From Holosporales bacterium (lineage in GTDB: Bacteria > Pseudomonadota > Alphaproteobacteria > Caedimonadales > UBA9215), in the NCBI GenBank assembly GCA_003503995.1, contig DOCA01000090.1, forward strand, positions 1-38,121: a stretch of DNA of 38,121 nt. The letters run 5' to 3'. How positions within the stretch are numbered: the stretch's first letter is position 1; each line of letters starts with the position of its first letter. This document shows positions 74 through 34,586 of the stretch, one piece after another. A model generated the notes under the pieces. The model searched no databases and was not told the DNA's origin. It saw only the letters and a list, made by a program, of their open reading frames with translations. A program made the position numbers and the translations under genes.

Positions 74-661
74 ATGCTAGAAATTTGGAACCAACTCGTT
101 CCTGAGAAATTCATCAGCGGAGCCAATAGCTATCTTTCAAAGCAACTGGAAGCAGCCCTTAGGGATCAGCTAGATGAGGATTTATCTTCTTGGAAATCTG
201 TCTGTGAGAATTTCAGTTCTTCGAAGTTTCTTATGGGGGAAGTGGATTCAATCCGCGTTAAGCCTGATTTAAGCTGGCTTGTTGACCCCAAGGAGCCACG
301 GGTTTCTCGTGTTTACCAAAAACAACATTACACTTTTGATGACCGTAGGGTGGAAGCAAAACCAGTTGATTTTGAGGCTGCTGAACAAATCATTGAGTCT
401 TTAGACGAACCAAAGGTTTCAAAGGATGTCCGTTTATTTATTTTTCAGACTAATCCAGGATTTTATAAAAGCTACGTTGAAACCGCCACCGTTCTTAAAA
501 GCGGGGAAGAGCTTTATATTATCGCCCCCAGTAGTTTAGCGCGGGATAAAATTCAAGAGCAATGTTATAACGCCTTGGATGATTTTCTGAAACATAACTA
601 TCAACTTGGTTTAGTGATACAAGCTAAGGAGAAGGAGGCTTCCCATGCCCTCAAAGAATAG
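74..661 (+). CDS. hypothetical protein, possibly 5'-truncated by the window edge
   Basis: 195-aa ORF. I checked the frame and it stays open back to nt 2, so the true start may lie outside the window. No family was recognised with certainty. The C-terminal stretch FIFQTNPGFYKSY...YIIAPSSLARDKIQEQCYNAL weakly resembles a DnaA-N-terminal-like domain by eye. Confidence 0.5.
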   Translation: MLEIWNQLVPEKFISGANSYLSKQLEAALRDQLDEDLSSWKSVCENFSSSKFLMGEVDSIRVKPDLSWLVDPKEPRVSRVYQKQHYTFDDRRVEAKPVDFEAAEQIIESLDEPKVSKDVRLFIFQTNPGFYKSYVETATVLKSGEELYIIAPSSLARDKIQEQCYNALDDFLKHNYQLGLVIQAKEKEASHALKE

Positions 662-1130: not shown

Positions 1131-1493
1131 ATGCCTAATCTTTTGATTTCTGTTTTGAGAATAATTCGCCCTAAGGAATACACCGCAATTGTTCTTTCCT
1201 TGTTGGGCATTGCTCTCCTTTCAAGTGTGAACGCTTCCAGCCTTAATGCTGACCTCTTTGAAGGGTCTCAAAATAAAACATCTTTCAGCCTTCTTTCATC
1301 CTGCTCCGTTGAGGCTAATGCCCAAGAGAGCTTAACAAGTTTTGACGTTCAATCTACGCGACGTCAAAAATACAGCCACTCTTTTTATTCCTGTTTTGAG
1401 AGTGGCTGTCTGCTTCCCGGTAACTTGATCACAACATTTTCTTTGGGCCAATCGTCTAAGGCGAATGTTGTGGATTTGGGAGACAAGTGGTGA
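1131..1493 (+). CDS. hypothetical secreted protein with an N-terminal signal peptide
   Basis: Strong SD (GGAGGG) upstream of the ATG. The hydrophobic N-terminus IVLSLLGIALLSSVNAS looks like a signal peptide. Its end overlaps the next ORF's start (GTG 1487). No family recognised. Confidence 0.55.
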   Translation: MPNLLISVLRIIRPKEYTAIVLSLLGIALLSSVNASSLNADLFEGSQNKTSFSLLSSCSVEANAQESLTSFDVQSTRRQKYSHSFYSCFESGCLLPGNLITTFSLGQSSKANVVDLGDKW

Positions 1494-3103
1494 AACGAGA
1501 ACATTTACAGCTGATACCAAAAGTAGAAGTAGATGAAGATCCTTTGTCCTTTCTTAGGAATCACAATGCTCATCTTTATATTCCCTCTGATATTTATGAC
1601 GCTCTGATCTGTGTTTATCGTATTTCAAGACATGATAATCCCCTTGTTAACTGGAAGAAGATGAAAAAGCACATGTTTAATCATCATCTTGTTAACATTT
1701 TAAAAAGAAGCTCACTAGTTTCTTCTAATAAGGTTCGTGACCTTAAAAGAAATAGAAGGAAATACAAGCATCTGTGTTTTGGTGAAATTTCTCATCAATG
1801 GAAACTTGACCCTAAGCTTAGCTCGATTGTGAGTGAGATTATCTACTCTTTTATTTATAAGGATCCGTTCTTTTTCAAAAGAAACCCTAATCTCCTCCGC
1901 AAGGAAAAACATCTTAAAAAGATGGACAAAATCAATAAGAGACTTGCGAATACCCCCGCTCAAGAGAGCGATAAAAAGAACACTACTGTTTTGTGGAATC
2001 CGTTTAAAGGAACTTATATAAAGCCTTACGTTCCCAAGGCAGCTGACGGAAATAACAATTTCTTTATTCTTGGTGAAAATAACGCGGGAAAACATTTCCT
2101 CTGCACCGAAATCATAAAGGACGTTTTGGCCGAGGGTGGCAATGTTCTCGTCTTTGACGATTCAGATAATTATAAAAACCTTTGTGAGTCCGTTGGCGGG
2201 CAATATATCACGGAGGGTAACCTTTCTTTAATAGGCATAGACTTTTTTAAGGTTCTCCCTGAAAAAGGCGTAGAAAATTCTGATCAGTATTACTCACTCT
2301 TTGAAATGTTCTCAACTTTACTTATTTTAATGGCCAGTGATGATCATGCGTTTTGTGATTCTGCCCACAACATGGTCGAATTGGCTTTAGTTTCTGCGTG
2401 GGAGCAAAAAGGACAAGAGGCAAACCTTCTCGATGTCATAAAACATCTTGATCAACAAGAGAATGAGACTGCCTCTAAAATAGCGTTAGGTCTTACTAAA
2501 TTTGATAAACGTTATAATAATTTCTTCAACAAATCCCCACAGAGTCTTTTTGAGAAAAAATTGACGGTTGTGAATTTCAAGGGACTTGATGACCCTTTGC
2601 TTCATACGGTCATAACATCTCTTTTGGTGGGAGTTTCACATCATCAAAAAGAGGGAAAGTGTTCAAAGCCTTTTTTGGTTCTATTTGAAGACACCCGCCT
2701 TCCTGATCCTTGCCCGCTTTTTGAAAGAGTGATTATTAACTTTTCTCGAACTGCACGCTTACAACGTATTTCCTTGGGCAAAGTCTCTAGTCTTCTAGAA
2801 AACATTACTGACTTAGACACAGGAGCGCATTCAATAAATCCTAATTCGCCTTACAGTTGGGCTCATTATTCCAGCCGTTTTGATATGGCTTTTTGGCGGA
2901 ACTCAAGCTGGCATGTTTTTTTCGAGGGAGGATATAGCGGTATGGGTTTTATCGAAAAGGCTCGGAGCCTCTTTTCAAAGGAAGATGTAAAAAAATTACA
3001 TCTTCTTTCGGGACCTAAATCAATTGCCATAAGAGGCCAGATTCAAGACCTCAAAATATACACACTTAAACTTAAAGGAGAAGATTATGCAGCCGCTGCT
3101 TAA
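1487..3103 (+). CDS. TraC/VirB4 ATPase-domain paralog with non-canonical Walker motifs
   Basis: It aligns by eye with the C-terminal half of the window's own TraC. Example: GNNNFFILGENNAGKHFLCTEIIKDVLAEGGNVLVFDDSDNYKNLCESVGGQY versus GNYNFCITGKSGSGKSFLCNEIIENTLSVGGKAFVIDRGESMKDLCEFRGGTH. PFLVLFEDTR matches PFLILIDEAK, and RNSSWHVFFEG matches ENSSWKVVLQQ. The start is uncertain: GTG at 1487 with GGGAGA upstream, and the first in-frame ATG lies much further in. Confidence 0.8.
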   Translation: MVKREHLQLIPKVEVDEDPLSFLRNHNAHLYIPSDIYDALICVYRISRHDNPLVNWKKMKKHMFNHHLVNILKRSSLVSSNKVRDLKRNRRKYKHLCFGEISHQWKLDPKLSSIVSEIIYSFIYKDPFFFKRNPNLLRKEKHLKKMDKINKRLANTPAQESDKKNTTVLWNPFKGTYIKPYVPKAADGNNNFFILGENNAGKHFLCTEIIKDVLAEGGNVLVFDDSDNYKNLCESVGGQYITEGNLSLIGIDFFKVLPEKGVENSDQYYSLFEMFSTLLILMASDDHAFCDSAHNMVELALVSAWEQKGQEANLLDVIKHLDQQENETASKIALGLTKFDKRYNNFFNKSPQSLFEKKLTVVNFKGLDDPLLHTVITSLLVGVSHHQKEGKCSKPFLVLFEDTRLPDPCPLFERVIINFSRTARLQRISLGKVSSLLENITDLDTGAHSINPNSPYSWAHYSSRFDMAFWRNSSWHVFFEGGYSGMGFIEKARSLFSKEDVKKLHLLSGPKSIAIRGQIQDLKIYTLKLKGEDYAAAA

Positions 3104-3551
3104 CGCGAACATCACACAGCCAGATCATTACGTTAAAGGGCGTTCTATAGAGCCTTTGGATGTTATTGAATCTTGGAAGCTCATGCACCATGTGGCTTGT
3201 GCCTTGAAGTATATTTGTAGAGCTGGTCACAAAGATTGCGAAAGGACCGATCTTGAAAAAGCAAATTTTTATTTAGACCGATTTCTACGCATTGGCACGT
3301 CAGCAAGATCTGACTGTTATATGAACAAAAGGAACATCTCCGTTGAGAAAGTAGCCCAAGATTGGCGGCTTAATACGAGCCTTGAGTTGGCAATTATGCA
3401 TATCCATTCAGCGACCCGCTCGACATCCCCTTTTTACATCGAAGAGGCTAAAAAGGCTATCAACATTAGGCTAAAGCAACTCAAGATTATTACTCAACAG
3501 AATGCCGCTAATGAAAACTCTAAATCCTTAGCGAAAGGAAAAAAGAAATGA
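3087..3551 (+). CDS. DUF3310-like protein (phage/plasmid SaV-like N-terminal domain)
   Basis: AAGGAG SD upstream of the ATG. The N-terminus PDHYVKGRSIEPLDVIESW...ACALKYICRAGHKD..RTDLEKANFYL matches the remembered DUF3310 signature (HY..G.EP.DVI...KY..RAG.K....DL.KA..YL). The C-terminal half is unassigned. Confidence 0.6.
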   Translation: MQPLLNANITQPDHYVKGRSIEPLDVIESWKLMHHVACALKYICRAGHKDCERTDLEKANFYLDRFLRIGTSARSDCYMNKRNISVEKVAQDWRLNTSLELAIMHIHSATRSTSPFYIEEAKKAINIRLKQLKIITQQNAANENSKSLAKGKKK

Positions 3552-3913
3552 AACAGAAGCTAACTCTAAAAAGAATCCTCTCCTTGAGTCTTATCCTTGG
3601 CACACCCACAGTTTGTCATGCATCGGCAGATCTGGGACATGAAGTCTTGAGTAATCAGGAGTCAACTCTCTCCCAAGAAGAGGCAGAAATGCAAGCAGAA
3701 AGGGAGGTCGGCCGACTCTGGCTTATAGCAATGCCTCATTTGACTTCTGCAGAAAAGAACGTTGTAACGCAATATCTTCAAGTAGGAATTCAGCGAGATT
3801 ATGAAAAATCACAGCAAGTTGTTGAAAAAATTAATGCAACGAATTTAAACCCTTCCCAACACACTCAACAAATTCTGGACAGTATTGTCAAAGATATAAA
3901 GGAAACAAAATAA
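3548..3913 (+). CDS. hypothetical secreted protein
   Basis: ATGA overlap with the upstream gene. The signal peptide MKQKLTLKRILSLSLILGTPTVCHAS is near-identical in pattern to the leader of the next gene. Confidence 0.6.
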   Translation: MKQKLTLKRILSLSLILGTPTVCHASADLGHEVLSNQESTLSQEEAEMQAEREVGRLWLIAMPHLTSAEKNVVTQYLQVGIQRDYEKSQQVVEKINATNLNPSQHTQQILDSIVKDIKETK

Positions 3914-4557
3914 TGAAAAATAACCTAATAAAAAAGAGTGCAATTTCTCTGAGCCTTATACTTGGCATTTTCACAGTGTGTAATGCTTCGGAAACATCTG
4001 AGGTAAAAGTCACCGCCGTTTTGAAACATGGTCTTGGTGCCTCAACGTCTCCAACTTCAAAGGACAATCCTCGTCCAATTTTGATGCACCTTAATAATTC
4101 TGAAAACATTCCCCTTGAGTGGCAATCTGATTTGAAGAATGCGGCGATGTTAGGAAAGTGCCACGGGGACTTGTCTTCGGAGAAAGTAATTTGCCGTATC
4201 CATGCTCTCACTATTGTGAAAAGCGATGGAAGTATCCTTGAGAGGGAGGTTGACGCTTGGATTGTTGATGAGGATGGCTTACTCGGTCTTCGTGGAAAAG
4301 TTTTTGATCGGGCGAAAAAAGAAAGAAAGGCTTTCCTTGAGGTTATGGATGCCATCAAGGAAAGGAATTTAGGAACGGAGTTTTCAAAAGAAGAGTCTAG
4401 TGCACGAGCGAAGGTTTTCGATTACTGCAAGCAGTATGTGGAATTATTGAGTCCTGTGGTCTCTATTGACGCGGGACAGGTTGTGAACGTTGTTTTTAAG
4501 AACGTCTCAGACTTAGATCCTACTAAAGAACAAAATGAGAAGACTAATGTCCAGTAA
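3913..4557 (+). CDS. secreted paralog of the TraB/VirB10 C-terminal domain
   Basis: Signal peptide MKNNLIKKSAISLSLILGIFTVCNAS. The sequence RPILMHLNNSENIPLEWQSDLKNAAMLGKCHGDLSSEKVICRIHALTIVKSDGSILEREVDAWIVDEDGLLGLRGKVFD aligns with TraB QPIMMRLADHGNLPRGWKSRLKDAVMIGSCYGDLSSERAVCRIHTLSFVERSGRTVEKSVEGWIIGEDGAPGLRGKVVD. The tail SIDAGQVVNVVFKNVSDL matches VVNPGRVVDVVFKKGFDL. Confidence 0.8.
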   Translation: MKNNLIKKSAISLSLILGIFTVCNASETSEVKVTAVLKHGLGASTSPTSKDNPRPILMHLNNSENIPLEWQSDLKNAAMLGKCHGDLSSEKVICRIHALTIVKSDGSILEREVDAWIVDEDGLLGLRGKVFDRAKKERKAFLEVMDAIKERNLGTEFSKEESSARAKVFDYCKQYVELLSPVVSIDAGQVVNVVFKNVSDLDPTKEQNEKTNVQ

Positions 4558-4840
4558 GCACCGCATTGGTTTTAATTTAGACCGTCCTACAAAAATTATG
4601 GGGCTCACGAAGGATGAGTTTGCTTTGCTGATTTTTGGTCTGGCATGCTTTATGTTTTCGCCAAACAAAACTCTTGGTCTTTGCCTTATCGGAATTTGTG
4701 TTGTGTTGCTTGTCGTTGTGAAACGTCTCAAGAAACAAATTGGCGGTTTCAACATTAAGTCCTTTTTATGGTGGTATTTCGGTTTTGAAGGAGGAAATCC
4801 GACATTACCTCCTTCTCATATAAGGAAATGGAATAAATGA
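4535..4840 (+). CDS. traL: type-F conjugative transfer protein TraL (VirB3-like)
   Basis: About 100 aa with a central hydrophobic hairpin. The C-terminal PPSHIRKWNK resembles the F TraL end (..FRQWIK). It sits immediately upstream of traE. An alternative start at 4547 has a better RBS. Confidence 0.8.
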   Translation: MRRLMSSKHRIGFNLDRPTKIMGLTKDEFALLIFGLACFMFSPNKTLGLCLIGICVVLLVVVKRLKKQIGGFNIKSFLWWYFGFEGGNPTLPPSHIRKWNK

Positions 4841-5400
4841 ACATTGATATTAAAAAAAACGTAGCCATTAAATTGCTCCAACAACGTAACTTTTCATATG
4901 TGGTTGTGGTGTTTTTAATGATGGTATGCAGTGTTTTGCTGGTCAGAGTTTTGAATGTCAGCGAGCGTTTGGTTATTGTTCCGTCTTTAAGTGATCCTGA
5001 TAAACGCTATCAAATTGATGGCAGCTTTATCGATGATAGCTATTTCAAGGACTGGGCGGCAAACCTTTTAGGGGATCTATATACCGCCAATCCTAAAACA
5101 GTTCTTCAAAAGAATAAGAGCTTTCTGCATTGGTCTATTAGCACATCTACCCTGAGCAAAGATCTTGAACAGTCAGCGAAAGCTTTGAAGAAAGATCAGA
5201 TAAGCACAGCCTTTTATCCTGAGACTTTTAAAATCTCACGTCAAACAAAAGAAATCTACGTAACGGGGATGTTCCTTACCTTTTTTGGTCGTTCTCAAAA
5301 GCCGGTTACCAGTCAAAAGACATTTATTTTAGGGTGGCAGATTGTCCATGGTGGCTCTGTTGCCATCCGTTCATTGAAGGAGTTAAAAAATGAAAAGTAA
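4837..5400 (+). CDS. traE: type-F conjugative transfer protein TraE
   Basis: ATGA overlap with traL. It has an N-terminal TM (FSYVVVVFLMMVCSVLLV) and the size and architecture of F TraE, in the traL-traE-traK order. Confidence 0.85.
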   Translation: MNIDIKKNVAIKLLQQRNFSYVVVVFLMMVCSVLLVRVLNVSERLVIVPSLSDPDKRYQIDGSFIDDSYFKDWAANLLGDLYTANPKTVLQKNKSFLHWSISTSTLSKDLEQSAKALKKDQISTAFYPETFKISRQTKEIYVTGMFLTFFGRSQKPVTSQKTFILGWQIVHGGSVAIRSLKELKNEK

Positions 5401-6067
5401 TAGCATTCTTAAAACGGCACTTTGTATAAGCCTTGCCCTTGGGGTTTCTCCCTCTTATGGAGCTACGGAAATCAAATCCGATAAGGTGATGCATTTCACA
5501 ATCAGCAATACAGGCCTGACGCGCATTGCGATCGAGGATGAGAGTATTAAATACTTTTTCACCTATCCCGCCACTGTTTCTGAAAGCTTGAATTTGCATG
5601 CGTCTGGAAATCTCTTTGTGGCAACGGCTGGATTGGTCGAGCCCATATTTTTGACGGTGATCTCGAGCAATGGAACAACGCAAGATATGAAGCTGACCTT
5701 TGCTAACAAAACCCCTCAACCTCTTCTCTTGAAAGTGAAAGAGGAAAATATAGCCTCGAGAGAGGAAATTGAGAGATGGATGACTGTTGCTTTAACAGGA
5801 GAGGCTCCACGTCATTTTAAAAGAGAAAGTCCTATAAAAAATAAAATTACAACGTCAAAAACGGTTGCCCATGAATTTGAGCGGTTTTCCAATGGCGTTT
5901 ATTCCCTTTCCCTTTGGCAAATTACGTCCAAGGCGGATAAGCCTGTTCCTTTAACAGCCGATTTATATATCGACAGTACGGAAGCAGGAAAAGTAAGTGA
6001 GAGTACGTTGGTTCCCTATGGAACAGCGCAACTCGTGATTATTTCAAAAAATAAGGAGATTAAATAA
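5390..6067 (+). CDS. traK: type-F conjugative transfer protein TraK (VirB9-like)
   Basis: Signal peptide followed by the FTISNTGLTRIAIEDE... pattern typical of TraK. Syntenic position. Confidence 0.8.
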   Translation: MKSNSILKTALCISLALGVSPSYGATEIKSDKVMHFTISNTGLTRIAIEDESIKYFFTYPATVSESLNLHASGNLFVATAGLVEPIFLTVISSNGTTQDMKLTFANKTPQPLLLKVKEENIASREEIERWMTVALTGEAPRHFKRESPIKNKITTSKTVAHEFERFSNGVYSLSLWQITSKADKPVPLTADLYIDSTEAGKVSESTLVPYGTAQLVIISKNKEIK

Positions 6068-6372
6068 TGAAACAAAAAATAATGGATCACTTTAAGGGGT
6101 CTTGGAAGACCTATGCCGGTCTTGCTGCTTTTAGCGTTTTATCAACAAAAGTAGATGCAACAGCCATTGAAAGAATGGGAACGGCGACTAACGGGCTTTC
6201 CGGTCTTATCAAGGGAACTCTTGGTGAAACGGTTTTGTTTGTCAGTAGTATTGGTGGTGCTGTGGGGGCCTTCATGAAGGGTAATATGTGGCTTGCTGTC
6301 GGTATCTTCTTAGTTGGTATGTTGTTCTCTTGGCATCTTGAGAATATTTCCGCCATGTTCCCAGGAGTGTAA
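6067..6372 (+). CDS. pilin-like protein (TraA/VirB2-type topology)
   Basis: AAGGAG SD. The leader ends ...AFSVLSTKVDA. The mature part of about 70 aa has a polar N-terminus and two hydrophobic helices (TVLFVSSIGGAVGAFM and WLAVGIFLVGMLFSW) separated by KGN, as in F-pilin and T-pilin. The assignment rests on topology only. Confidence 0.5.
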   Translation: MKQKIMDHFKGSWKTYAGLAAFSVLSTKVDATAIERMGTATNGLSGLIKGTLGETVLFVSSIGGAVGAFMKGNMWLAVGIFLVGMLFSWHLENISAMFPGV

Positions 6373-6380
6373 TTAAGCCC

Positions 6381-7631
6381 ATGAAAAAATTCATCGATAA
6401 GATCAAATTTTCTTCTGAAGGCACCGCAGAAAGTATTAAAAAGAAACAACGTATTGCTATTGGTGTGGTCTTTTGCGTTGTGGGTGTTGTGTTCTGGGTT
6501 GCAAAATCAGGGGTAAAGAACGTTGCCACCCTTGAAACTAAGGCTGAAAAACCAAAGAAGGTCGTTGTCTCTGATCTTGTCGATGAACAAGAGACATGGG
6601 TCTCTCGCTTGGAGGAAAAGTCCAATAGCATGACGGCTCAAGTCGCTAACTATAAAAAAGAAAACGATATCCTTGGTAAACGTATAGAGAATCTTGAGGA
6701 AGCTTTAAAAGCTCAAGTAAAGGATTCACACCCCTCAAAACCAAAACCTGAAAAGACCCTCAAGGCCCCATCGTTAGGGGTGGCTCCTTTAGGGCAACCT
6801 TCTTTTCCTCAAACAAAAGAGGTCAGAAATACATTTCCGGTAACTCAAGGAGCGGAACAGGGTTCTTTTAAACCTCTTAAGAAAATTCTCTATGTCAGTG
6901 TTGGGGAGGAAGATGATTTCCATCACGTGAAGAATTATGTGGTTGCGGGAACAAACGCGCGGGCTGTTTTAACATCCGGTGTTGTTGTTTCAACATCAGT
7001 CTCTACCCAAGGAAATCCTCAACCTATTATGATGCGCTTGGCGGATCATGGAAACCTTCCAAGAGGATGGAAATCCCGTTTAAAGGATGCGGTGATGATT
7101 GGTAGTTGTTATGGGGATTTGTCATCGGAAAGAGCGGTTTGTCGAATCCATACTTTGTCTTTTGTTGAGCGTTCCGGCCGAACCGTTGAAAAGTCTGTTG
7201 AAGGCTGGATCATTGGTGAAGATGGCGCACCCGGTCTTCGCGGTAAAGTTGTAGATAAATCTGGCAAGGTTGCCCGAGAAGCCTTTGTGGCAGGCATGTT
7301 ATCAGGCATGAGCAGCTTTGTTAAAAGCTCTGCTCAAAGTTCAGTTTTCCCTGTGAGCCCGTTTGGTCAAACCAATGCTCTTAAAACAGAGGATGTCTTA
7401 AAAAGTAGTGCAGCACAAGGTACGTCAAATGCCCTTGAGAAACTAGCAGACTTTAGCATCAAACGCGCTGAGTCTATGAATCCTGTTCTTGTGGTTAATC
7501 CGGGCCGCGTTGTGGATGTTGTTTTCAAAAAAGGGTTTGATTTAAGCCCTAATCGTCAAAAGGGTCTTCGCCCTGTTCAAGCCACTTCATCTGGCAATCA
7601 AAACTTTGGAGGATCCTCAAATGGATATTAA
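6381..7631 (+). CDS. traB: type-F conjugative transfer protein TraB (VirB10-like)
   Basis: N-terminal TM (IAIGVVFCVVGVVFWVA), a coiled coil, a Pro-rich linker, and a C-terminal TrbI/VirB10-type domain (GDLSSERAVCRIH...GLRGKVVD). Confidence 0.9.
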   Translation: MKKFIDKIKFSSEGTAESIKKKQRIAIGVVFCVVGVVFWVAKSGVKNVATLETKAEKPKKVVVSDLVDEQETWVSRLEEKSNSMTAQVANYKKENDILGKRIENLEEALKAQVKDSHPSKPKPEKTLKAPSLGVAPLGQPSFPQTKEVRNTFPVTQGAEQGSFKPLKKILYVSVGEEDDFHHVKNYVVAGTNARAVLTSGVVVSTSVSTQGNPQPIMMRLADHGNLPRGWKSRLKDAVMIGSCYGDLSSERAVCRIHTLSFVERSGRTVEKSVEGWIIGEDGAPGLRGKVVDKSGKVAREAFVAGMLSGMSSFVKSSAQSSVFPVSPFGQTNALKTEDVLKSSAAQGTSNALEKLADFSIKRAESMNPVLVVNPGRVVDVVFKKGFDLSPNRQKGLRPVQATSSGNQNFGGSSNGY

Positions 7632-7860
7632 ACACATGATGACTGCAATGGGGCTTTTGTCCGTTTCACTTTTAGGGGGCTGTTCTACCTATCAAGAAAG
7701 TTTTGACTGTCCTGTGGGGGAGGGGATTCGTTGTGCCTCTCTCTCAACCATTAATAAAAAGATGGATAAGGATGAGATCGATTTAGGTCTTGAGCCAAGG
7801 TCTGCTCAAGTGACACAAACAACTTTTGGCTCTGATTTTGCCATGGATCTCAGGGGATAA
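7621..7860 (+). CDS. traV: type-F conjugative transfer lipoprotein TraV
   Basis: GGAGGA lies 7 nt upstream of the ATG at 7621. It has the lipobox LLGGC followed by the Cys pattern STYQESFDCPVGEGIRCAS typical of TraV. The track start at 7606 was rejected in favour of the RBS-supported ATG. Confidence 0.8.
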   Translation: MDIKHMMTAMGLLSVSLLGGCSTYQESFDCPVGEGIRCASLSTINKKMDKDEIDLGLEPRSAQVTQTTFGSDFAMDLRG

Positions 7861-12495: not shown

Positions 12496-12774
12496 CTAAT
12501 GGGTATCATAAACATCTTTTCGATGGTCCAAATCAACAGTTGTAATCACAAGTTGAGTATCTTCAATGACACAGATCAGTCGATAGTCACCAATACGATA
12601 ACGCCAAAGGCCAGCAAGGTTACTTTTGAGGGGTTTACCAAACTCTCTTGGGTCACCAGAATCCAAGATTTTCTGAATGTATTTTTGAAAACGCTTTTGA
12701 ATGGGCTTGTCGAGTTTGAGAAATTTCTTCTCTGCATCGCGGGTGAAAGTAAGGCTCCACTTTTTCTTAGTCAT
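12496..12774 (-). CDS. RelE/ParE-family type II toxin
   Basis: 92 aa. GLWRYRIGDYRLICVIEDTQLVITTVDLDHRKDVY is the classic RelE/StbE C-terminal pattern. It overlaps the upstream antitoxin gene by 8 nt. Confidence 0.85.
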   Translation of the reverse strand: MTKKKWSLTFTRDAEKKFLKLDKPIQKRFQKYIQKILDSGDPREFGKPLKSNLAGLWRYRIGDYRLICVIEDTQLVITTVDLDHRKDVYDTH

Positions 12775-12997
12775 CTTCTAAGAGGCCAGCTTTTTTCTGC
12801 ACGTCTTCCCAAGACACGCCTTGGTCACCACTTTTCAAATGCTCTTCATAAAGGGAAACAGCTTTTTGTATTTTTCTTTGCTTCTCGAGGTACTCGCCTA
12901 AAGCTTCTCTCAAGTAGTAGCTTTTGGGGCGATGTGTTTCCTTTGAGAGCCGATTTAGCTCTTTTTCCATGTCCTCAGGGGGGCGAAAGGTAATCAT
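12767..12997 (-). CDS. ribbon-helix-helix antitoxin (RelB/ParD/CopG-like)
   Basis: MITFRPPEDMEKELNRLSKETHRPKSYYLREALGEYL has an RHH beta-strand plus helix pattern, followed by an acidic tail. The start was moved to the internal ATG at 12997; the track start is 13039. Confidence 0.75.
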   Translation of the reverse strand: MITFRPPEDMEKELNRLSKETHRPKSYYLREALGEYLEKQRKIQKAVSLYEEHLKSGDQGVSWEDVQKKAGLLEDD

Positions 12998-13052
12998 GAT
13001 ATTTTCTCCTTTAATAGCAATGTACTCAAAGTATAACATGTATTACAAAATA

Positions 13053-22761: not shown

Positions 22762-23337
22762 ATGGAAAACAATGAAGCTCAACACAATCCTTATCTCTAT
22801 GAGGGTTTAAGCGCAGATCTTGCATCAGAAAGAGAAAAACTGGCTAGTATGACAGGCCATCTTTCTCTTGTTGGTGACCGAATAAAAGAAGATATAACTC
22901 AGTTACACAAAGAATTTCAAGACGCAAAATCTTCCTTGGAAGGTCAACTAAGTGAAGGGTTGAGAGCTGCTTCTGAAGATTTGGCCAATCAATCTTTTAA
23001 TATATTTAAAGATAAGGTTCTTTCAAAAACCCAGGAGTCCATGTCAGGTTTAGAAAAACTGGCCAATAGAACTTACTCAAACATAAGCGATTTAACTTCT
23101 GCCTCCAGACTGAGTTTTAGGAAGCTTATTATCCTAATGTCAGTTGGGGGAATTCTTTCGGGAACTATAGGTGCTATGGGATCTGGTTTTTTCTTCAATA
23201 AATTTTTCCAAGTAAATCCCGGAACAAAGCAACATTTAGCTTGGGGAAGTGCCCTTGAAAAATCTTGGCCTGAACTCACAGAGAGAGAGCAAGATAAGTT
23301 AAACAAGCTTTTGAAGGAAAATGCCCCTCCTTGGTGA
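22762..23337 (+). CDS. hypothetical coiled-coil protein with a C-terminal TM segment
   Basis: AAGGA RBS, 12 nt after traD. A coiled-coil N-terminus is followed by LIILMSVGGILSGTIGAMGSGFFF. No family recognised. Confidence 0.5.
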   Translation: MENNEAQHNPYLYEGLSADLASEREKLASMTGHLSLVGDRIKEDITQLHKEFQDAKSSLEGQLSEGLRAASEDLANQSFNIFKDKVLSKTQESMSGLEKLANRTYSNISDLTSASRLSFRKLIILMSVGGILSGTIGAMGSGFFFNKFFQVNPGTKQHLAWGSALEKSWPELTEREQDKLNKLLKENAPPW

Positions 23338-23798
23338 TTTTTCTTGGTATTCGAGAAACAGACGATATGGGGTTGTGTTCGGGAACCTACATATATGCAC
23401 AATCTGAATTAAGAGAAACTATCGATGAAACCGCTAACAAAGTTGAAGCGTATAATGCTTTAAGTGATTGGGCTCGTTTTGGTGCAGAAACAATCACCGC
23501 CAGCAACGATCCAGACGAAATGGAGAAAGCAATAGGATATAATCTCTTGATTTGTAACTCCGTCATAGTTCAGAACATGGTTGATTTGACAGACACAATA
23601 AACAAGCTCCAGAAATCAGGAGTATCTATTGGAAAAGAGGATATTGCGCGTCTAAGCCCCTATTTAACAAGTCATATTAAACGGTTTGGGGGCTATGTTT
23701 TAGATTTAGATACCGTCCCTAAGGACATATCTCAATTGAAATGTAACGCGTTTTTGCAAGAAAAAGAAGAAGAAAGAGGTTGTATTGGACAGGAATGA
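23331..23798 (+). pseudogene. tnpA: Tn3-family transposase, C-terminal remnant only
   Basis: ELRETIDETANKVEAYNALSDWARFG...YNLLICNSVIVQNMVDL...IARLSPYLTSHIKRFGGYVLD parallels the remembered Tn3 TnpA C-terminus ([25 protein letters not shown]...LNLVTAAIVLWNTVYLE...[20 protein letters not shown]). A full TnpA is about 1000 aa; only about 130 aa remain. Confidence 0.75.
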
Positions 23799-23901
23799 GA
23801 GAAAGCCCATTTTACTATAAAATAATTCACTGAAAGCCTTTGATATCAACGATTTATAAAAATATTGCACTCAGGGTGAAAAGATCGGTTCTCAGAAAAA
23901 A

Positions 23902-23944
23902 CTTTGAGCGCAAACCGTTGGTATTAAACGGTTTAAGCGACCCC
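23902..23944 (-). repeat. candidate Tn3-family terminal inverted repeat (outer end GGGGTC)
   Basis: The minus strand reads GGGGTCGCTTAAACCGTTTAATACCAACGGTTTGCGCTCAAAG. It has the GGGGTC outer end and a GCGCT.AAG-like inner end, as in Tn3-family IRs. It lies downstream of the tnpA remnant in the expected orientation. A second GGGGTC is at 23974-23979. Confidence 0.45.
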
Positions 23945-23962
23945 TAGGGCACATTTGGAACG

Positions 23963-24499
23963 TTACGGGATAGGACCCCTTCCAGGTATTTTCAGATGCT
24001 TGGAAAATATTTCATGAGGCCTTTCGTCTATGAGCGAGCTTATCAACTTCATACGTTCTTTAACAGGTTTTTGTCTATCTTTGGTTTCTTTAATGCTCTC
24101 TAGTTCGAGTTCAAGAAGATATGCTGCATACATTTTATCAAATAGATTCTGGGTATAGATTTTAATATCATCTGGCATTTCCAAACGCGCTTGATCCCTT
24201 GCCTGCCAAAAAAGTGCTTTAGATTCTTCAGTTACTCTAGCGCTCTCGAGTACCAAAGTTATAGCATTACTCAATTTATTATAGACGGAATGAAATATTT
24301 TTCTTTCATCAGCGTGTATTTTATATATTTGTTTTTCTTTTTCTTGTTTGGCAATTTGAAGATTGGATTTTGCAATACCGTTAGCGCGAAAAGCTACATA
24401 GAACAGCCCCACACTAATTATAATACTAACAATGGTGTCAAAAACAGATACTACCGCATGGTATTTTACTAATAATTCATTTATTCTAAATATAGTCAT
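23963..24499 (-). CDS. hypothetical N-terminally membrane-anchored helical protein
   Basis: 178 aa. One TM (VVSVFDTIVSIIISVGLFYVAF), then a predicted helical, charged region. The stop lies 18 nt from the candidate Tn3 IR. The gene is AT-rich. Confidence 0.5.
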   Translation of the reverse strand: MTIFRINELLVKYHAVVSVFDTIVSIIISVGLFYVAFRANGIAKSNLQIAKQEKEKQIYKIHADERKIFHSVYNKLSNAITLVLESARVTEESKALFWQARDQARLEMPDDIKIYTQNLFDKMYAAYLLELELESIKETKDRQKPVKERMKLISSLIDERPHEIFSKHLKIPGRGPIP

Positions 24500-24606
24500 G
24501 TTATGATATCCTGATATATTTGTTATACTTCTCTCATCAAATTCATTTTTTCATGAGGTGTAATGCTGTTTTTATAAGAGCAGAGTGTGAGGGAGCGTGT
24601 CACTTT

Positions 24607-25641
24607 CTACATTTGTGCATTAGTTGGTATGTAATTTTTTAGTCTTTCTTCAAATATAAAACCTGCATTCCTTAATGTCTTCAATTCTGGATTATCCGGT
24701 GTTTCCTCACAAAAATCTTGAAAACTAATAAGCCGATTATCTCCGTTGCTTCTAATTATATCTGACAGAAATATATTAAGTTTATTAAATTTACTAAAAG
24801 CTTTTTCAGATAACGAAAGATTCCAATAGGTGATTCTTGATTTATTGAAATAAGTAAGAAGAGATATTAGAACTTCTCGAACAGGGGTATAGTTCCATGC
24901 TTCTGTATTAAATCTTTCATAATATGTATATCTTAGTTTATTATCTGTTACCTTTAAGGTAATATTTATTGGTAAAAGTGCGCTATCATTTTCATTATAG
25001 TCTTTGTAGCTTGAGCTTTTGATTTGATCTGTTGTTTCAGTCGTTGTTAAAATTAAAACTTCGACAATTTTTCCTTTAAGTCGATGATGATTTAATCTTT
25101 CTATTAATTGTTCAGGGTTTTTATACCATAGAGAATCATAGTGACGATTGTATCGCTCATAAATATTATCAGCAACACCCTTCAACCATTTCAAATTAAC
25201 ACTAAATAACTTAGATGTTTGTTCAAAAACCTCTTCAGTCATTTTAGGCAGCAATGAATCGGGGTTCTTAAGATCAGACAAAAGGATATTGCAACCTGGA
25301 ATAAATCTTGGAATGTCCACAGTTGGAATAGAATGAATTTTAAAGACTTCCAAAAATCGCTCAATACATAGATCAATTTCAGTATTAACCTGCGGTAGTG
25401 TAGAGTGCATTACAGACCTTAATGTCATTGTAATGAAATCATGTAGGCTCACACCAAGATTATCAGCTTGAATTTCATAGAACTGTTTTATCTCTGGTTC
25501 TACACGTAAGGTCATTGATAGTTTTTTTGTATCATTTGTTGGCGATATTTTAATATCGTTAATTTCTGCCTTGTTAATTAGTGCGCATAATAGATTGGTT
25601 ACAGAAAGTTTATTTTTATTCATTATTTTATTTCCTTGCAT
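24607..25641 (-). CDS. hypothetical protein with an N-terminal ribbon-helix-helix-like DNA-binding motif
   Basis: 344 aa and very AT-rich. KKLSMTLRVEPEIKQFYEIQADNLGVSLHDFITMTLRS fits an RHH (Arc/CopG) strand-helix-helix pattern. About 260 aa of the C-terminal region are unassigned. An alternative start is at M7. Confidence 0.5.
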   Translation of the reverse strand: MQGNKIMNKNKLSVTNLLCALINKAEINDIKISPTNDTKKLSMTLRVEPEIKQFYEIQADNLGVSLHDFITMTLRSVMHSTLPQVNTEIDLCIERFLEVFKIHSIPTVDIPRFIPGCNILLSDLKNPDSLLPKMTEEVFEQTSKLFSVNLKWLKGVADNIYERYNRHYDSLWYKNPEQLIERLNHHRLKGKIVEVLILTTTETTDQIKSSSYKDYNENDSALLPINITLKVTDNKLRYTYYERFNTEAWNYTPVREVLISLLTYFNKSRITYWNLSLSEKAFSKFNKLNIFLSDIIRSNGDNRLISFQDFCEETPDNPELKTLRNAGFIFEERLKNYIPTNAQM

Positions 25642-25894
25642 AAGATAATATTATATTTACACAAGTTTTTTTTAATCACAATGATTTTTTTAATCAAACT
25701 GAAACAGTTTGCAGTGATATTCTAATCTTTAACCGCTTTACCCACACATGAGGCCTTGCTAAAAGAGTCCACGAGCTATTTTATATAGCGCCATTTCAGA
25801 AATGAAGTGTGTCATTTTGAGAAAGTAGGCCTTCCAGGCAAAAACGCTCCAAAATTCCGAATAGGCATTTGCTCAGTTGTTTATAGCGATTCTC

Positions 25895-27028
25895 TTAACC
25901 AAAAGCTTTTGTCTCAAAGCAATATCTGAAAATATCTGAAACACATTTTTCAGTTTCCTTTGGTGGTATTTTAGTGATGTCATCTATAGATTTGAGATAT
26001 TCAGAAAATATCTTTAAAACTTCTTGTCCACCTGAGTATTCTATTGAAAATGGTAAAGTACCACTGCCTGTCATGATATAATCACCCATATCAAGAACTG
26101 TACATAGAATATAGTTTCCAATGCTTTGTTGCTCATTCATTGTTTTATCAAAGAGGACTCTTTCTTCACTTGTCATCAGGTCACTAACCTTTATGGCACC
26201 ATTTTTATAAATATCTTCGATCTTAAAGATTGTGAAATGACTTTTTAAAAGTACCTCTATAAGTTTTCTCTCTTGAGGTTTGAAAGTAGGCCTCTTTTCC
26301 TCAAAGATTAGCTGTAAAAGAGGGGTACCCTTTATGCTAAAATATAAAAGACAATGCTCAGCGTGCATACTCATTTCTGCGTCATTGCGGATTCTAATAC
26401 TTTCTTCAAATCCAGCTTCATAAATACCAAGAATCTTAGCGGCAGAAAAAGCTTGAGAATCTGTCACCTCTGAAAATAGATTGGTAATGAGCTTCCCTAG
26501 TACCTTTCTATTCTCTTTGTACTCTTTAAATAAGGACGCATCTTTTTCCCCATGGGGTCGTGCAGTTCTTTTGTTTTCTTTTACTTCCTTTTTTTTCAGA
26601 TCTTTTCCTTCAGACAAGGGACTTATATTCCCCATAAGGAAATCAAAGGCCATCTCGATATCATCCTTTTGTAAGATTTTTTCTATGGTTCTGTCTTTAT
26701 AATGATCCATCAGAAAAAGAATACGTTGATTGCTTTTGCGAAGTTCTTTGTAGTTTGATTCACACGCTGTCACTTGCTCTTCTTGCTTAGGAGTAAGGTT
26801 TTCTTTTTTCCACTCCTTGCATTGGTTGATGAAATGAATAATATCTTTATTTTGCTCAGTATAAAGCTTTACACTACGCTCAACGATAGCGTCATCCAAA
26901 ACATGAGGCCTATCCTGTGCTTCTTCAAAATTCTCAAGATTCTCTTGTGACGATTCCAGCATGGTCTTTGAAAGGTCATAAATCATAGGAATCATTGAAA
27001 TCGGCTGAGGTATAAATGACTTGGGCAT
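25895..27028 (-). CDS. hypothetical protein, 377 aa
   Basis: Long intact ORF preceded by an extended -10 (TGTTATAAT on the minus strand, around 27108-27116). No family recognised by eye. Confidence 0.5.
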   Translation of the reverse strand: MPKSFIPQPISMIPMIYDLSKTMLESSQENLENFEEAQDRPHVLDDAIVERSVKLYTEQNKDIIHFINQCKEWKKENLTPKQEEQVTACESNYKELRKSNQRILFLMDHYKDRTIEKILQKDDIEMAFDFLMGNISPLSEGKDLKKKEVKENKRTARPHGEKDASLFKEYKENRKVLGKLITNLFSEVTDSQAFSAAKILGIYEAGFEESIRIRNDAEMSMHAEHCLLYFSIKGTPLLQLIFEEKRPTFKPQERKLIEVLLKSHFTIFKIEDIYKNGAIKVSDLMTSEERVLFDKTMNEQQSIGNYILCTVLDMGDYIMTGSGTLPFSIEYSGGQEVLKIFSEYLKSIDDITKIPPKETEKCVSDIFRYCFETKAFG

Positions 27029-27125
27029 AAATAAGTGACCTTTTAAAAATAATATCAGTGAACTTTTAGGCTCATGAGAAAAGAACTAGCATTTTTGGAG
27101 ATTAACTCGCAAGGATTATAACATT

Positions 27126-27701
27126 TTATTCCTGACTCCTAGCGCGCATGATGGTCTGCCTACTTGTGTTTAATTCACGAGCTATTTCTGAAACAGTCTC
27201 TCCTTTTTGTATTTTCTCTGCGACAGATTGTTTTTGCTCTAATGATAATGTTGGCCGTCTTCCTAAGAGTTTTCCTTGTGATTTGGCCCGTGATAGGCCA
27301 GCTTGTGTACGTTCGATAAGAAGATCCCTCTCGAACTGGGCAACTGTGTTGATAATGTTCATGGTCATTCTTCCAGCTGAACTTGTGAGATCAACGCCCC
27401 CTAAAGCAAGGCAATGAACTCGAACGCCTGTTTTTTCTAAAGCTTCAACTGTCATGCTGACATCAATGGTATCTCTTCCAAGTCGATCAAGCTTGGTCAC
27501 AACAAGCACATCACCTTTCTCCATTTTATCAATCAGTCGGGAAAATCCCTTGCGTTGTTTAATGGCCATGGAACCAGAAATAGTTTCTGAGATTATTCTA
27601 TGGGGTTCAATTCTAAAACCGGCTGCTTCAATTTCAAGGATCTGGTTTTCGGGTACTTGTTCAGTGGTTGAGACACGGACATAAGCAAAAGTTCTAGACA
27701 T
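27126..27701 (-). CDS. serine recombinase (resolvase/invertase family)
   Basis: MSRTFAYVRVSTTEQ holds the catalytic Ser motif. Other matches are VTKLDRLGRD, QFERDLLIERT and a C-terminal HTH (ETVSEIARELNTSRQTIMRA). The track start at 27719 is a TTG; the ATG at 27701 gives the canonical N-terminus. Confidence 0.9.
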   Translation of the reverse strand: MSRTFAYVRVSTTEQVPENQILEIEAAGFRIEPHRIISETISGSMAIKQRKGFSRLIDKMEKGDVLVVTKLDRLGRDTIDVSMTVEALEKTGVRVHCLALGGVDLTSSAGRMTMNIINTVAQFERDLLIERTQAGLSRAKSQGKLLGRRPTLSLEQKQSVAEKIQKGETVSEIARELNTSRQTIMRARSQE

Positions 27702-27743
27702 ATTATCTTTTCTGTTCAAAATGGCTGTACGTAATTATAACAG

Positions 27744-27815
27744 TGTCCTTTATTGTGTAAAGATAATTTATGGACACCATTATTTCCTGTGTCCGAAAAC
27801 GAACCTTTTCGGACA
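27744..27815. promoter_or_regulatory. res-like recombinase binding sites (two TGTCC...GGACA inverted-repeat pairs)
   Basis: GTGTCC (27744-27749) pairs with GGACAC (27772-27777). TGTCCGAAAA (27790-27799) pairs with TTTTCGGACA (27806-27815), perfect 10-bp arms with a 6-bp spacer. They lie directly upstream of the resolvase gene. Confidence 0.55.
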
Positions 27816-27832
27816 GGGGAAGCTATATAAAT

Positions 27833-33496: not shown

Positions 33497-33551
33497 GTCA
33501 AAACCTTATATTCTTAAAACTGAATTACCTTGTAACCCGTTCTGGGTTTAA

Positions 33552-33603
33552 GGTGCTTGCACCGAAGCGTATAGTTGCAGTATGCAACGTATGAGCGCGC
33601 TTG
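33552..33603. other. candidate oriT core (inverted repeats plus MobQ-like nick region)
   Basis: It lies between divergent traA and traC/traD-like genes. GGTGC-TT-GCACC is at 33552-33563 and GTTGCA-gta-TGCAAC at 33574-33588. GTATGAGCGCGCTTG (33589-33603) follows, resembling the remembered RSF1010/Ti nick region (GTAAGTGCG|CCCT; CGTATAATTGCG|CCCT). Confidence 0.4.
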
Positions 33604-33742
33604 TCTAGCATTTACAATGCATCCAAGACACTTCGATTATTTTTTTCTTTACATTCCCCTCAAGTTTATTATTCTAGTCATAGGAATAATATTAATGGGT
33701 ACGGGAAGCTCAAGTTTCAATCACAACCTGAAAGGAATAGCT

Positions 33743-34325: not shown

Positions 34326-34356
34326 GAGAGAAGAATTTTTATAAAAGGTTTAAAAA

Positions 34357-34578: not shown

Positions 34579-34586
34579 TTTCCCCC

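Follow-up and report, generated by a model that had tools for sequence, protein, structure and literature searches.

The gene at positions 3913 to 4557 of the analyzed DNA (hereafter the window, 38,121 nucleotides in total, with an F-type conjugation cluster of an uncultured endosymbiont-like bacterium) encodes a stand-alone copy, with a predicted Sec signal peptide, of the beta-barrel of TraB, the F-type VirB10. The encoded protein is most likely an accessory modulator of the DNA-transfer machine. [quoted passage not shown] Among the T4SS subunits only VirB10/TraB crosses both membranes, and to our knowledge its antenna has been described as conserved in every system that was solved or modelled. 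The relevant features are the following.

3548 to 3913, forward strand: gene of a small secreted protein of 121 aa, with a stop/start overlap with the short gene
3899 to 3906, forward strand: Shine-Dalgarno-like sequence AAGGAAAC, 6 nt before the ATG of the short gene
3913 to 4557, forward strand: short gene (stand-alone TraB/VirB10 barrel paralog), 214 aa, stop codon at 4555-4557
3913 to 3987, forward strand: signal peptide of the short protein (aa 1-25, MKNNLIKKSAISLSLILGIFTVCNA), as read from the sequence
4003 to 4311, forward strand: N-terminal part of the beta-barrel (aa 31-133), with the motifs CxGDLSSE..CRIH and EDGxxGLRGK in common with TraB
4312 to 4446, forward strand: shortened hydrophilic helical hairpin (aa 134-178), in place of the TraB antenna projection
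4314 to 4330, forward strand: purine tract GAAAAAAGAAAGAAAGG, site of a 4-nt insertion in the related locus L001
4447 to 4554, forward strand: last strands of the barrel (aa 179-197, ..SPVVSIDAGQVVNVVFK), then a C-terminal tail of low conservation (aa 198-214)
4547 to 4840, forward strand: traL, which opens the canonical gene set of the F-type tra operon, directly downstream and overlapping
6381 to 7631, forward strand: cognate full-length traB (416 aa), with TM helix, coiled coil, Pro-rich linker, barrel and full antenna
7606 to 7860, forward strand: traV, lipoprotein with lipobox LLGGC, N-terminal part only (74-84 aa according to which start is chosen)

Homology and fold

A preliminary description of the sequence had proposed that the short gene specifies a secreted, stand-alone paralog of the TraB/VirB10 C-terminal domain, and the results of BLASTP, phmmer, the profile search against the PDB and Foldseek agree on this identity, the signal peptide having been read from the sequence. 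BLASTP aligned residues 50-208 with residues 210-395 of the TraB of the window at 37% identity (E 8e-41), and across the barrel columns the identity to the cognate TraB is about 43%. The tblastn matches obtained against plasmids were exclusively TraB/VirB10 genes, and a phmmer search of 1.84 billion representatives recovered 581 proteins at E<=1e-10, essentially all of them TraB-sized, with matches to TraB representatives down to E 1.6e-29. The profile search against the PDB recovered pED208 TraB (E 2e-21) and the NCBIfam TraB model matched with E 2.5e-9; the Pfam TrbI model (PF03743) alone remained sub-threshold (25.8 bits vs a GA cut-off of 35). The AF2 model (pLDDT 85, pTM 0.74) displays the VirB10-type beta-barrel fold. 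Its best Foldseek matches were TraB in the C17 central cone (7spj, 7spc, 7okn; E 2e-11 to 4e-10), and the top 17 matches in the PDB were all VirB10-family chains (TraB, followed by DotG, TrwE, Xanthomonas VirB10, CagY and pKM101 TraF). Both the profile and the fold searches thus back the similarity to the TrbI/VirB10/TraB C-terminal domain, and a protein without TrbI/VirB10 homology, an outcome for which the preliminary description had allowed, is not what was found.

The sequence motifs that had been quoted in support of the relationship were recovered as well: GDLSSEKVICRIH vs GDLSSERAVCRIH, GLRGKV in both proteins, and GQVVNVVFK vs GRVVDVVFK. In comparison with the F-type TraB proteins (PF03743 TrbI; pED208/F OMCC structures 7SPB, 7SPC, 7SPJ and 7OKN), the short protein has the same fold, two Cys residues and the elements GEDGxxGxRG and AGRxVxVVFK in common, and in both a helical hairpin interrupts the barrel at the equivalent position.

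Reading frame, export signal and operon setting

The short gene has an ATG start codon, which overlaps with the stop of the upstream gene as TAATG, an arrangement that suggests translational coupling to the gene of the 121-aa protein. The block AAAGGAAACAAAATA plus ATG is the same in four loci (the window, L001, L011 and L012). In L004 a single base of it differs, whereas L005, L007 and L010 match it more loosely, and the ribosome-binding block is kept even where a different gene is located upstream. Scans for promoters and terminators yielded scores no better than those of shuffled sequence. On the other side, the final 11-23 nt of the short gene overlap the start of traL, and the two are thus presumably co-transcribed. 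The short gene is found at the head of the tra operon, directly before traL, in the window, L001, L007-L009 and L012; one to five small genes lie in between in L005 and L004, and the contig of L011 ends before traL. A full-length traB was present alongside the short gene wherever the contig extended far enough.

Homologs of the 121-aa protein adjoin the short gene or traL in L004, L005, L007, L016 and L017. The signal peptide of the 121-aa protein of the window resembles that of the short protein, and the latter is homologous to the signal peptide of the small secreted neighbour in L017. Nevertheless, the two genes do not constitute an obligatory pair, since L012 and L001 possess the short gene without the neighbour, L017 possesses the neighbour without the short gene, no short gene lies between the neighbour and traL in L016, and the order is reversed in L005. 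Neither do the paralogs of TraB and TraC represent one module, as had been put forward: according to tblastn the TraC paralog is confined to the element of the window itself and does not accompany the short gene elsewhere, being missing from L005, L010 and L017 (the last of which also lacks the short gene).

The N-terminus of the short protein, MKNNLIKKSAISLSLILGIFTVCNA followed by SE, reads as the n/h/c layout of a Sec signal peptide (MK..KK, then SAISLSLILGIFTV, then CNA before S). This layout is conserved in all seven members of the short family, and the AF2 model shows a pLDDT of 53-56 across residues 1-30. Judged from the layout, signal peptidase I likely cleaves after CNA. At the same time, Cys23 is invariant in seven out of seven members and a Cys also occurs in the signal peptide of the L017 neighbour (..LGLSASC, then GA), and VirB10-type barrels form rings in all solved OMCCs. 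These observations could point to an outer-membrane lipoprotein subunit, in which a lipidated Cys23 would replace the antenna as the anchor and the barrels would constitute an extra ring or cap beneath the outer membrane, within an expanded core. We consider such a role very unlikely, given that the residues ahead of Cys23 (FTV, STI, SNT) deviate from the canonical lipobox [LVI][ASTVI][GAS]C, to which LLGGC in the TraV of the same element conforms, and that the signal peptidase I site fits instead. Moreover, the sister elements that lost it are 91-100% identical in their remaining tra genes, and a structural subunit would not be expected to disappear among such close relatives.

Loss of the antenna and of other channel features

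The preliminary description had the short protein align along its length with the C-terminal barrel of TraB. The homology stands, yet the alignment is not unbroken, as the antenna hairpin is ~24-27 residues shorter. In the AF2 models the hairpin of the short protein counts 45 aa (helices 134-152 and 161-178, of 19 and 18 residues, with an 8-residue loop), vs 72 aa for the antenna of the TraB of the window (helices 294-320 and 336-365, with a 15-residue loop). Within the short family the segment spans 51-56 aa, against 70-86 aa (mode 78) in 41 TraBs, and it is far more hydrophilic, with a GRAVY of -0.73 vs -0.09, a best 15-residue hydrophobic window of 0.21 vs 1.29 and 36% vs 19% of charged residues. 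Both the shortening (~24 residues) and the hydrophilicity had been overlooked in the first reading. In addition, the glycines of helix alpha1 (G305, invariant in TraB, and G309, 90%) and the loop residues P324 and G329 (85-90% conserved in TraB) are gone from the short family, the hairpin of which is highly charged and devoid of the conserved SVFPVSPFGQTN loop. In TraB, alpha1 forms a hydrophobic rim that is embedded in the outer membrane (PMC8617172).

The N-terminal elements that the short protein was said to lack could be located in the AF2 model of the TraB of the window, as a TM helix (16-42), a coiled coil (69-115) and a disordered Pro-rich stretch (119-168). Ahead of the barrel of the short protein there is only the 25-residue signal peptide, which thus stands in place of the inner-membrane anchor, the coiled coil and the Pro-rich linker. 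The mature N-terminus maps to around residue 197 of pED208 TraB in the PDB profile alignment. The modelled barrel of the latter begins at K194 (PMC8770708) and its TraK-binding strand comprises residues 176-186 (PMC8617172, PMC8770708), so that the short protein has no counterpart of this strand.

The attributes of a functional channel subunit, namely the antenna, the membrane anchor plus linker and the TraK/VirB9-binding strand, were therefore not found in the short protein, and considering that the remaining antenna is short and hydrophilic it should be unable to form a pore or to substitute for TraB. The homology to a channel-forming domain could by itself suggest a subunit that replaces TraB in a second channel state, as had been speculated. 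However, besides the missing elements, antenna-less TraB (the delta-AP variant) of pED208 supports neither transfer nor pili, which illustrates the effect of a barrel without antenna, and replacement of the antenna loop (APL) by five Gly residues uncouples transfer from piliation (PMC10939261). An alternative channel subunit is thus extremely improbable, and this role, like that of a redundant TraB, was rejected. It should be kept in mind that the pED208 mutants are full-length, membrane-anchored replacements of TraB, whereas the short protein would be a free periplasmic domain beside wild-type TraB.

Of the near-invariant TraB barrel positions, 71% are kept in the short family, a degree of retention that would be compatible with binding of the short protein to TraV or to the barrel. 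The TraB-invariant S248, E250 and G279 (TraB numbering) are degenerate, as is the SSER element, and some ancestral contacts may thus be lost. The short hydrophilic antenna and the absence of the TraK strand would favour that end of the earlier speculation in which the protein caps, or competes for, the outer-membrane core.

Family, phylogeny and selection

The short family comprises seven proteins of 209-229 aa with a common signal peptide and the same antenna deletion. It was monophyletic in 198 of 200 bootstraps of an NJ tree, in which it appeared as sister to the TraB clade of this element lineage. One identical protein (P0154) was recovered on four contigs from four samples. A scan of the GTDB genomes for the family returned the L005 contig only, a metagenome scan with the family patterns gave no match, and a word-index search with a single short protein returned itself and one fragment. 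Three short TrbI-domain matches from the representative search (P0038, P0089 and P0096) were rejected as family members, as these are N-terminally cut TraB fragments, two of which (P0038 and P0096) retain the full antenna and one of which (P0089) stops ahead of it.

The four sub-groups of short proteins are 41-51% identical, against 90-95% for their cognate TraB barrels. The short barrels share 42-48% identity with the cognate TraB barrel (60% in the case of P0004), with saturated dS. Between the window and L007 the identity is 99% for TraE, 77% for TraL and 47% for the short protein. In three independent close pairs, the dN/dS of the short gene was 0.32, 0.26 and 0.29. Neutrality was rejected in the two pairs that were formally tested (p 1e-5 to 4e-5), and the third pair showed a similar synonymous excess. 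The values are 3-8 times above those of traL, traE, traK and traB. On these estimates the short gene is under purifying selection, yet it evolves much faster than TraB.

The elevated rate could also be taken as a sign that the gene is a functionless remnant, i.e. a partial traB duplicate that is decaying and still open by chance. Such a reading would find support in the L001 locus, an 88%-identical relative in which a 4-nt insertion results in (GAAA)4 and a frameshift, in the deletion of the barrel in L010, L013 and L014 (P0165 of L010 being a deletion chimera), in the degeneration of several TraB-invariant motifs, and in the frequency with which RAGE-type elements carry truncated tra genes (PMC10732058). 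We nevertheless regard it as unlikely. Six of the seven members have an undamaged reading frame, and without selection one would not expect ORFs of 209-229 aa to stay open across at least four sub-lineages that have diverged as far as stated above. The dN/dS is well below the ~1 that, together with disrupted relatives, would characterize a pseudogene, and omega is 0.28 even downstream of the L001 frameshift. Furthermore, conservation extends to the signal peptide, the ribosome-binding site and the location of the gene, the domain boundary is precise and the AF2 fold is confident. The one frameshifted relative and the one barrel-less lineage do imply that selection on the short gene is weak or conditional. 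For the same reasons little is left of the alternative, raised in the preliminary description, of a recent partial duplication with frameshifts in relatives: disrupted relatives do exist, as described for L001 and for L010, L013 and L014, but the duplication is old, the ORF has stayed open under purifying selection in at least five divergent lineages, and the low identity to the cognate barrels, together with the deep divergence within the short family, rules out a recent origin.

Proposed origin and mechanism

From the alignments and trees we infer that the short gene originated in a domain-precise partial duplication of traB within this F-type, RAGE-like element lineage, the full-length traB at 6381 to 7631 being the source lineage of the duplicated domain, and that the barrel was fused to a signal peptide which is homologous to the one on the small secreted neighbour. 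The soluble periplasmic barrel would then dock on the outer-membrane core by its retained barrel surface, for which the N-terminal tether of the lipoprotein TraV and/or the adjacent TraB barrels in the central cone, where packing is loose, are likely sites. Once docked as a decoy subunit, in sub-stoichiometric amount or in competition, it would adjust how the T4SS assembles, how it is gated or which partners it accepts. TraV is the proposed partner because the N-terminal domain of its pED208 homolog binds the TraB barrels (PMC8770708, PMC10939261). Inter-barrel contacts in pED208 are sparse, and cones with differing barrel numbers assemble in vivo (PMC8770708). As TraV is only ~74-84 aa long here, the stoichiometry argument derived from pED208 (spare TraV N-termini) may not transfer.

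The short gene is accessory and not core: it moves between elements as a cassette, and sister elements have lost it. The high divergence of the short protein relative to the near-constant TraB barrel would not be expected of a tightly co-evolving partner. This rate asymmetry is one argument for a different function, in which the hypervariable, antenna-less barrel would be a periplasmic decoy that docks on the outer-membrane core through the TraV tether or the central cone and decides whether or with whom the machine works, and thus a specificity, exclusion or interference determinant passed as a cassette between competing mobile elements of intracellular bacteria. Directed against the T4SS of related competitors, which may be co-resident or may be met when the host is the recipient, the barrel would serve as a decoy or a poison subunit, yet would have diverged enough to spare its own machine. 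The logic would be analogous to that of fertility-inhibition or entry-exclusion genes. Other arguments are the cassette-like exchange, with recombination breakpoints between the short gene, traL and traE, and the dispensability of the gene, which was lost in L010 and L013 and is absent from L017. In addition, the TraB barrels of F and pED208 are not interchangeable, which makes the barrel contacts system-specific (PMC10939261). We nonetheless judge an interference or exclusion determinant to be unlikely. The pairwise dN/dS values are below 1 and positive selection was not seen, and with the short gene presumably transcribed together with its own tra operon, the element would need some way not to poison itself. 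Exclusion in F-type systems works via TraS/TraT and TraG and not via the cone, and we know of no exclusion or fertility-inhibition protein that is derived from VirB10. A modulator or decoy of the T4SS cone remains our preferred reading.

Relation to known systems

Beyond the losses described above, the short protein differs from F-type TraB in being dispensable and in its rate of evolution, which is several times higher. A parallel is provided by the P-type rvh T4SS of the Rickettsiales, in which paralogs of virB2, virB4, virB6, virB8 and virB9, partly truncated, occur beside a functional copy. These scaffold duplicates of obligate intracellular Alphaproteobacteria have been proposed to be specialised or regulatory (bioRxiv 10.1101/2025.08.29.673095 and references therein). 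The rvh system belongs to another T4SS class, however, and virB10 is not among its listed duplicates (bioRxiv 10.1101/2025.08.29.673095). Moreover, unlike the rvh duplicates, the short gene is part of the F-type system of a mobile element and has acquired a signal peptide. Fertility-inhibition and entry-exclusion proteins are likewise accessory and variable, are encoded in or near transfer operons and modulate the T4SS, but they have no sequence or fold relation to the short protein and the analogy is functional only.

As a conserved natural protein that consists of the barrel only, with a trimmed antenna, and is presumably exported by itself, the short protein constitutes a natural domain dissection of TraB. 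The existence of the family suggests that the barrel surface may have a task separate from forming the channel, for which docking to TraV or the cone is a candidate, and the combination of a signal peptide with a short-antenna barrel would be a design for a trans-acting modulator or inhibitor of conjugation. The habit of intracellular Alphaproteobacteria to keep truncated T4SS paralogs thereby extends to the F-type systems of mobile elements, and to VirB10 in particular. If the proposal of a hypervariable decoy is true, this would be the first T4SS regulator known to derive from VirB10 itself.

Locus and operon context

The plus-strand genes from position 1131 to past 12,000 abut or overlap one another, from which we infer that the short gene is part of the tra operon. 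The stop codon of the preceding gene overlaps the start codon of the short gene (TAATG), and the 3' end of the short gene shares 11-23 nt with the start of traL.

3913-4557, plus strand: short gene, ORF with an ATG start, 214 aa
6 nt 5' of this ATG, plus strand: Shine-Dalgarno-like sequence AAGGAAAC
1487-3103, plus strand: TraC paralog, 538 aa, diverged copy of the TraC/VirB4 ATPase domain

A scan of the region for consensus promoters and terminators gave nothing above shuffled sequence. Just 3' of the best promoter-like site of the region (738-766) lies an inverted repeat with a 19-bp stem (AGATCAGCAAGGTGTTTTG...CAAAACACCTTGCTGATCT, 920-962), which may serve as operator or terminator. Of a 431-aa protein with a weak DnaA_N-like match in the related locus L005 (768-2063), the first ORF of the window (74-661, plus strand) has a counterpart to just the C-terminal 195 aa; it may be truncated, or interrupted near the contig ends.

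The window is an entire contig (38,121 nt) from a MAG with the label 'Holosporales bacterium', and the F-type transfer set on it is complete. TraL, TraE, TraB, TraC, TraW, TraU, TrbC, TraN, TraF, TraH, TraG and TraD were recognized by Pfam, NCBIfam or precomputed matches, TraK and TraV by sub-threshold matches only. Between traK and traB, an unannotated ORF of 101 aa (6067-6372, plus strand), whose N-terminus is leader-like (..KVDATA) and which has two hydrophobic segments, resembles, judging from its sequence, the TraA-type pilin that is otherwise missing; it matched no model in Pfam or NCBIfam, and its counterpart in L005 consists of two separate ORFs. A ParE-toxin/RHH-antitoxin pair (12496-13039, minus strand) is situated inside the operon between traU and trbC, on the opposite strand, and is conserved in this position in L002, L003 and L005. 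The cargo and processing region (23331-38013) contains:

23331-23798: Tn3 transposase remnant
27126-27719, minus strand: resolvase
27833-33496, minus strand: MobA/MobL + AAA_30 helicase + Toprim relaxase-primase, 1887 aa
35411-35995: PLD-family nuclease
36535-38013: group II intron reverse transcriptase, near the contig end

An F-type T4SS combined with a Ti-type relaxase is the characteristic layout of Rickettsiales amplified genetic elements (RAGE). The gene set found here resembles this layout (for background on RAGE see PMC10732058). TraB fragments close to that of the window (P0155, P0158) come from MAGs labelled Simkaniaceae (Chlamydiota) and more diverged ones (P0156, P0157) from MAGs labelled Caedimonadaceae, which suggests either binning errors or a spread of the element across phyla, among endosymbionts of protists.

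Homology and fold of the short protein

The preliminary description had taken the short protein for a TraB/VirB10 C-terminal barrel paralog with its own signal peptide, and this is confirmed. Residues 50-208 align with residues 210-395 of the cognate TraB at 37% identity (BLASTP, E 8e-41), and every motif then quoted as shared is present in both proteins. A tblastn search of 72,556 plasmids recovered annotated TraB/VirB10 genes only, and a phmmer search of 1.84 billion representatives recovered 581 proteins at E<=1e-10, nearly all of them TraBs of 350-500 aa that aligned in their C-terminal halves. The match to Pfam TrbI (25.8 bits, below the gathering score of 35) is inconclusive by itself; the other tests are not. 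The AlphaFold2 model, made from an 82-sequence alignment (mean pLDDT 85, pTM 0.74), comprises a beta-barrel and one helical hairpin. Both routes suggested earlier, profile and Foldseek searches, led to TraB: pED208 TraB was the only PDB sequence matched by profile (E 2e-21), and TraB of the F/pED208 outer-membrane core complex (7spj, 7spc, 7okn) ranked first in the PDB by fold (E 2e-11 to 4e-10), followed by DotG, TrwE, Xanthomonas VirB10, CagY and pKM101 TraF. By homology and fold the short protein, whose family members bear the label 'hypothetical protein' or 'TraB' in databases, belongs to the VirB10/TrbI superfamily.

Judging from the sequence, residues 1-25 (MKNNLIKKSAISLSLILGIFTVCNA|SE) are laid out like a Sec signal peptide, and the protein looks exported. 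The invariant Cys23 makes a lipid-anchored structural ring possible, although the lipobox is non-canonical when compared to the LLGGC in TraV of the same element. This TraV (7606-7860, plus strand) is only about 74-84 aa long, against 204 aa in pED208, and appears to represent the N-terminal barrel-binding part, without the C-terminal domain, which together with TraK makes up the outer ring.

A barrel without a membrane antenna

In the model of the cognate TraB a TM helix (16-42), a coiled coil (69-115) and a disordered Pro-rich stretch (119-168) can be discerned, all of which the short protein lacks, as had been noted before. The alignment along the length of the barrel stands as homology, but it is broken by a single consistent gap, at the antenna projection inserted in the barrel. 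In the model of the cognate TraB, the antenna helices (294-320 and 336-365) are joined by a loop of 15 residues; in that of the short protein, the hairpin helices span 134-152 and 161-178, with 8 residues in the loop. The short family lacks both the conserved alpha1 glycines and the SVFPVSPFGQTN loop of TraB.

Antenna segment in seven short proteins and 41 full-length TraBs
Property; short family; TraB
Length; 51-56 aa; 70-86 aa (mode 78)
GRAVY; -0.73; -0.09
Most hydrophobic 15-residue window; 0.21; 1.29
Charged residues; 36%; 19%

In the solved F-type complex, alpha1 of TraB forms a hydrophobic rim in the outer membrane and 17 hairpins make up the pore (PMC8617172, PMC8770708). When the antenna is deleted, transfer and pili are both lost (PMC10939261), and according to a recent preprint the antenna is conserved across all T4SS architectures (10.1101/2025.08.29.673095). 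In the profile search the mature N-terminus of the short protein aligned around residue 197 of pED208 TraB, in which the TraK-binding strand comprises residues 176-186 and the modelled barrel starts at K194 (PMC8770708). Since the mature protein begins just past this strand, at the modelled barrel start, it is a domain-precise barrel minus the channel-forming and ring-coupling elements. Three features that define a functional VirB10/TraB are missing: an N-terminus that spans the envelope, the contact with VirB9/TraK, and the antenna in the outer membrane. The lack of anchor, linker, TraK strand and membrane-competent antenna rules out a second channel subunit and argues against the alternative channel state proposed earlier.

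A family under selection

Exhaustive and profile searches yielded related short proteins of 209 aa (P0003, P0152), 229 aa (P0004), 215 aa (P0153) and 219 aa (P0154), as well as P0002, which is frameshifted. A neighbour-joining tree built on the barrel columns recovered the short proteins as monophyletic in 198 of 200 bootstraps, with the TraB clade of the same element lineage as sister group. The signal peptide (MK.NLI..SA.SLSL.LG....C.A) and the identical antenna deletion that are common to all members support this grouping independently.

Three independent close pairs of short genes gave dN/dS values of 0.32, 0.26 and 0.29, and neutrality was formally rejected for two of them (p about 1e-5 to 4e-5). 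The values for the core genes traL, traE, traK and traB were 0.03-0.15; the short gene is thus under purifying but relaxed selection. An identical P0154 was found on four contigs from four samples. Wherever the contig extends far enough, the short gene is located upstream of traL at the head of the F-type operon (the L011 contig stops before traL), and wherever that region is covered a full-length traB follows downstream. Family, tree, dN/dS, the unchanged P0154 and the conserved position together exclude a recent duplication, the case that could have undone the preliminary description, as well as a neutrally decaying fragment. A functionless remnant is unlikely.

The genes listed in the same preprint as occurring in duplicated or truncated form in Rickettsiales are virB2, virB4, virB6, virB8 and virB9; virB10 is not on this list (10.1101/2025.08.29.673095). 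A term search of a 2025 nomenclature review gave no VirB10 paralog, and a literature search of limited scope revealed no account of a VirB10 barrel that is secreted and stands alone.

Exchange and origin at the operon head

The TraB and TraC paralogs had been regarded as one module. Matches of the TraC paralog (23% identity to TraC 384-757, E 2e-23) in tblastn were confined to the element of the window itself (L002, L003); it was absent from L005, L010 and L017, which rules out a conserved pair. With GENNAGKH as Walker A and LVLFED at the Walker B position, it may not hydrolyse ATP.

The short gene itself is accessory and exchanged among elements. Identity between its four sub-groups is 41-51%, versus 90-95% for the cognate TraB barrels. 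Between the window and L007, TraE is 99%, TraL 77% and the short protein 47% identical, and for L007 versus L012 the values are 88% for the short protein but only 53% for TraL. Given such sharp differences within the same locus pairs, the operon head (3913-5400, compared with L001, L007 and L012) reads as a recombination mosaic, with breakpoints between neighbouring genes. In L010, L013 and L014 the barrel is deleted, leaving a 115-aa chimera of signal peptide and ~30 barrel residues joined to the domain of the neighbouring small protein, in an operon otherwise 91% identical in DNA. In L017, which is more distant, DUF3310, the small secreted protein and traL are present and the short gene is not. 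In L001 (88% identical) the ORF is split by 4 extra nucleotides within a GAAA tract (window 4314-4330); as dN/dS 3' of them is still 0.28, the frameshift either arose recently or reflects an assembly error or, possibly, slippage.

The neighbouring gene encodes a small secreted protein of 94-167 aa with a conserved core (AEREVGRLWLIALPHLT..YLQxGIQRDY) and no Pfam or NCBIfam match:

Window 3548-3913, plus strand
L005 4486-4770
L007 1574-1945
L016 1-402
L017 5211-5714

It is regular at the heads of these operons and more widespread than the short TraB copy; in L005 the order of the two genes is swapped, and in L004 it has an in-frame TGA where its relatives have Trp. Its signal peptide in L017, MKQLLSKTGLSLTVLLGLSASCGAVE, is clearly related to that of the short family, MKHNLIKNSAISLSLILGISTVCNASE; that in the window is of the same type, and those in L005, L007 and L016 are of a different type. 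In the simplest history, a copy of the 3' half of traB would have been placed after this signal sequence, at the head of the operon, with ongoing recombination between the 5' ends of both genes probably following.

Possible role

The hypervariability and cassette behaviour of the short protein make interference with, or exclusion of, related elements a serious rival to the main reading given here. The free periplasmic barrel retains 71% of the near-invariant TraB barrel positions, and most likely, we infer, it would bind the partners of TraB barrels. [quoted passage not shown] Candidate docking sites would thus be the TraV N-terminal domain and adjacent TraB barrels. The short proteins constitute a real, small and previously undescribed sub-family of clear anatomy; as to their putative function, they may act as sub-stoichiometric or competing subunits that would tune the assembly, gating or specificity of the T4SS.
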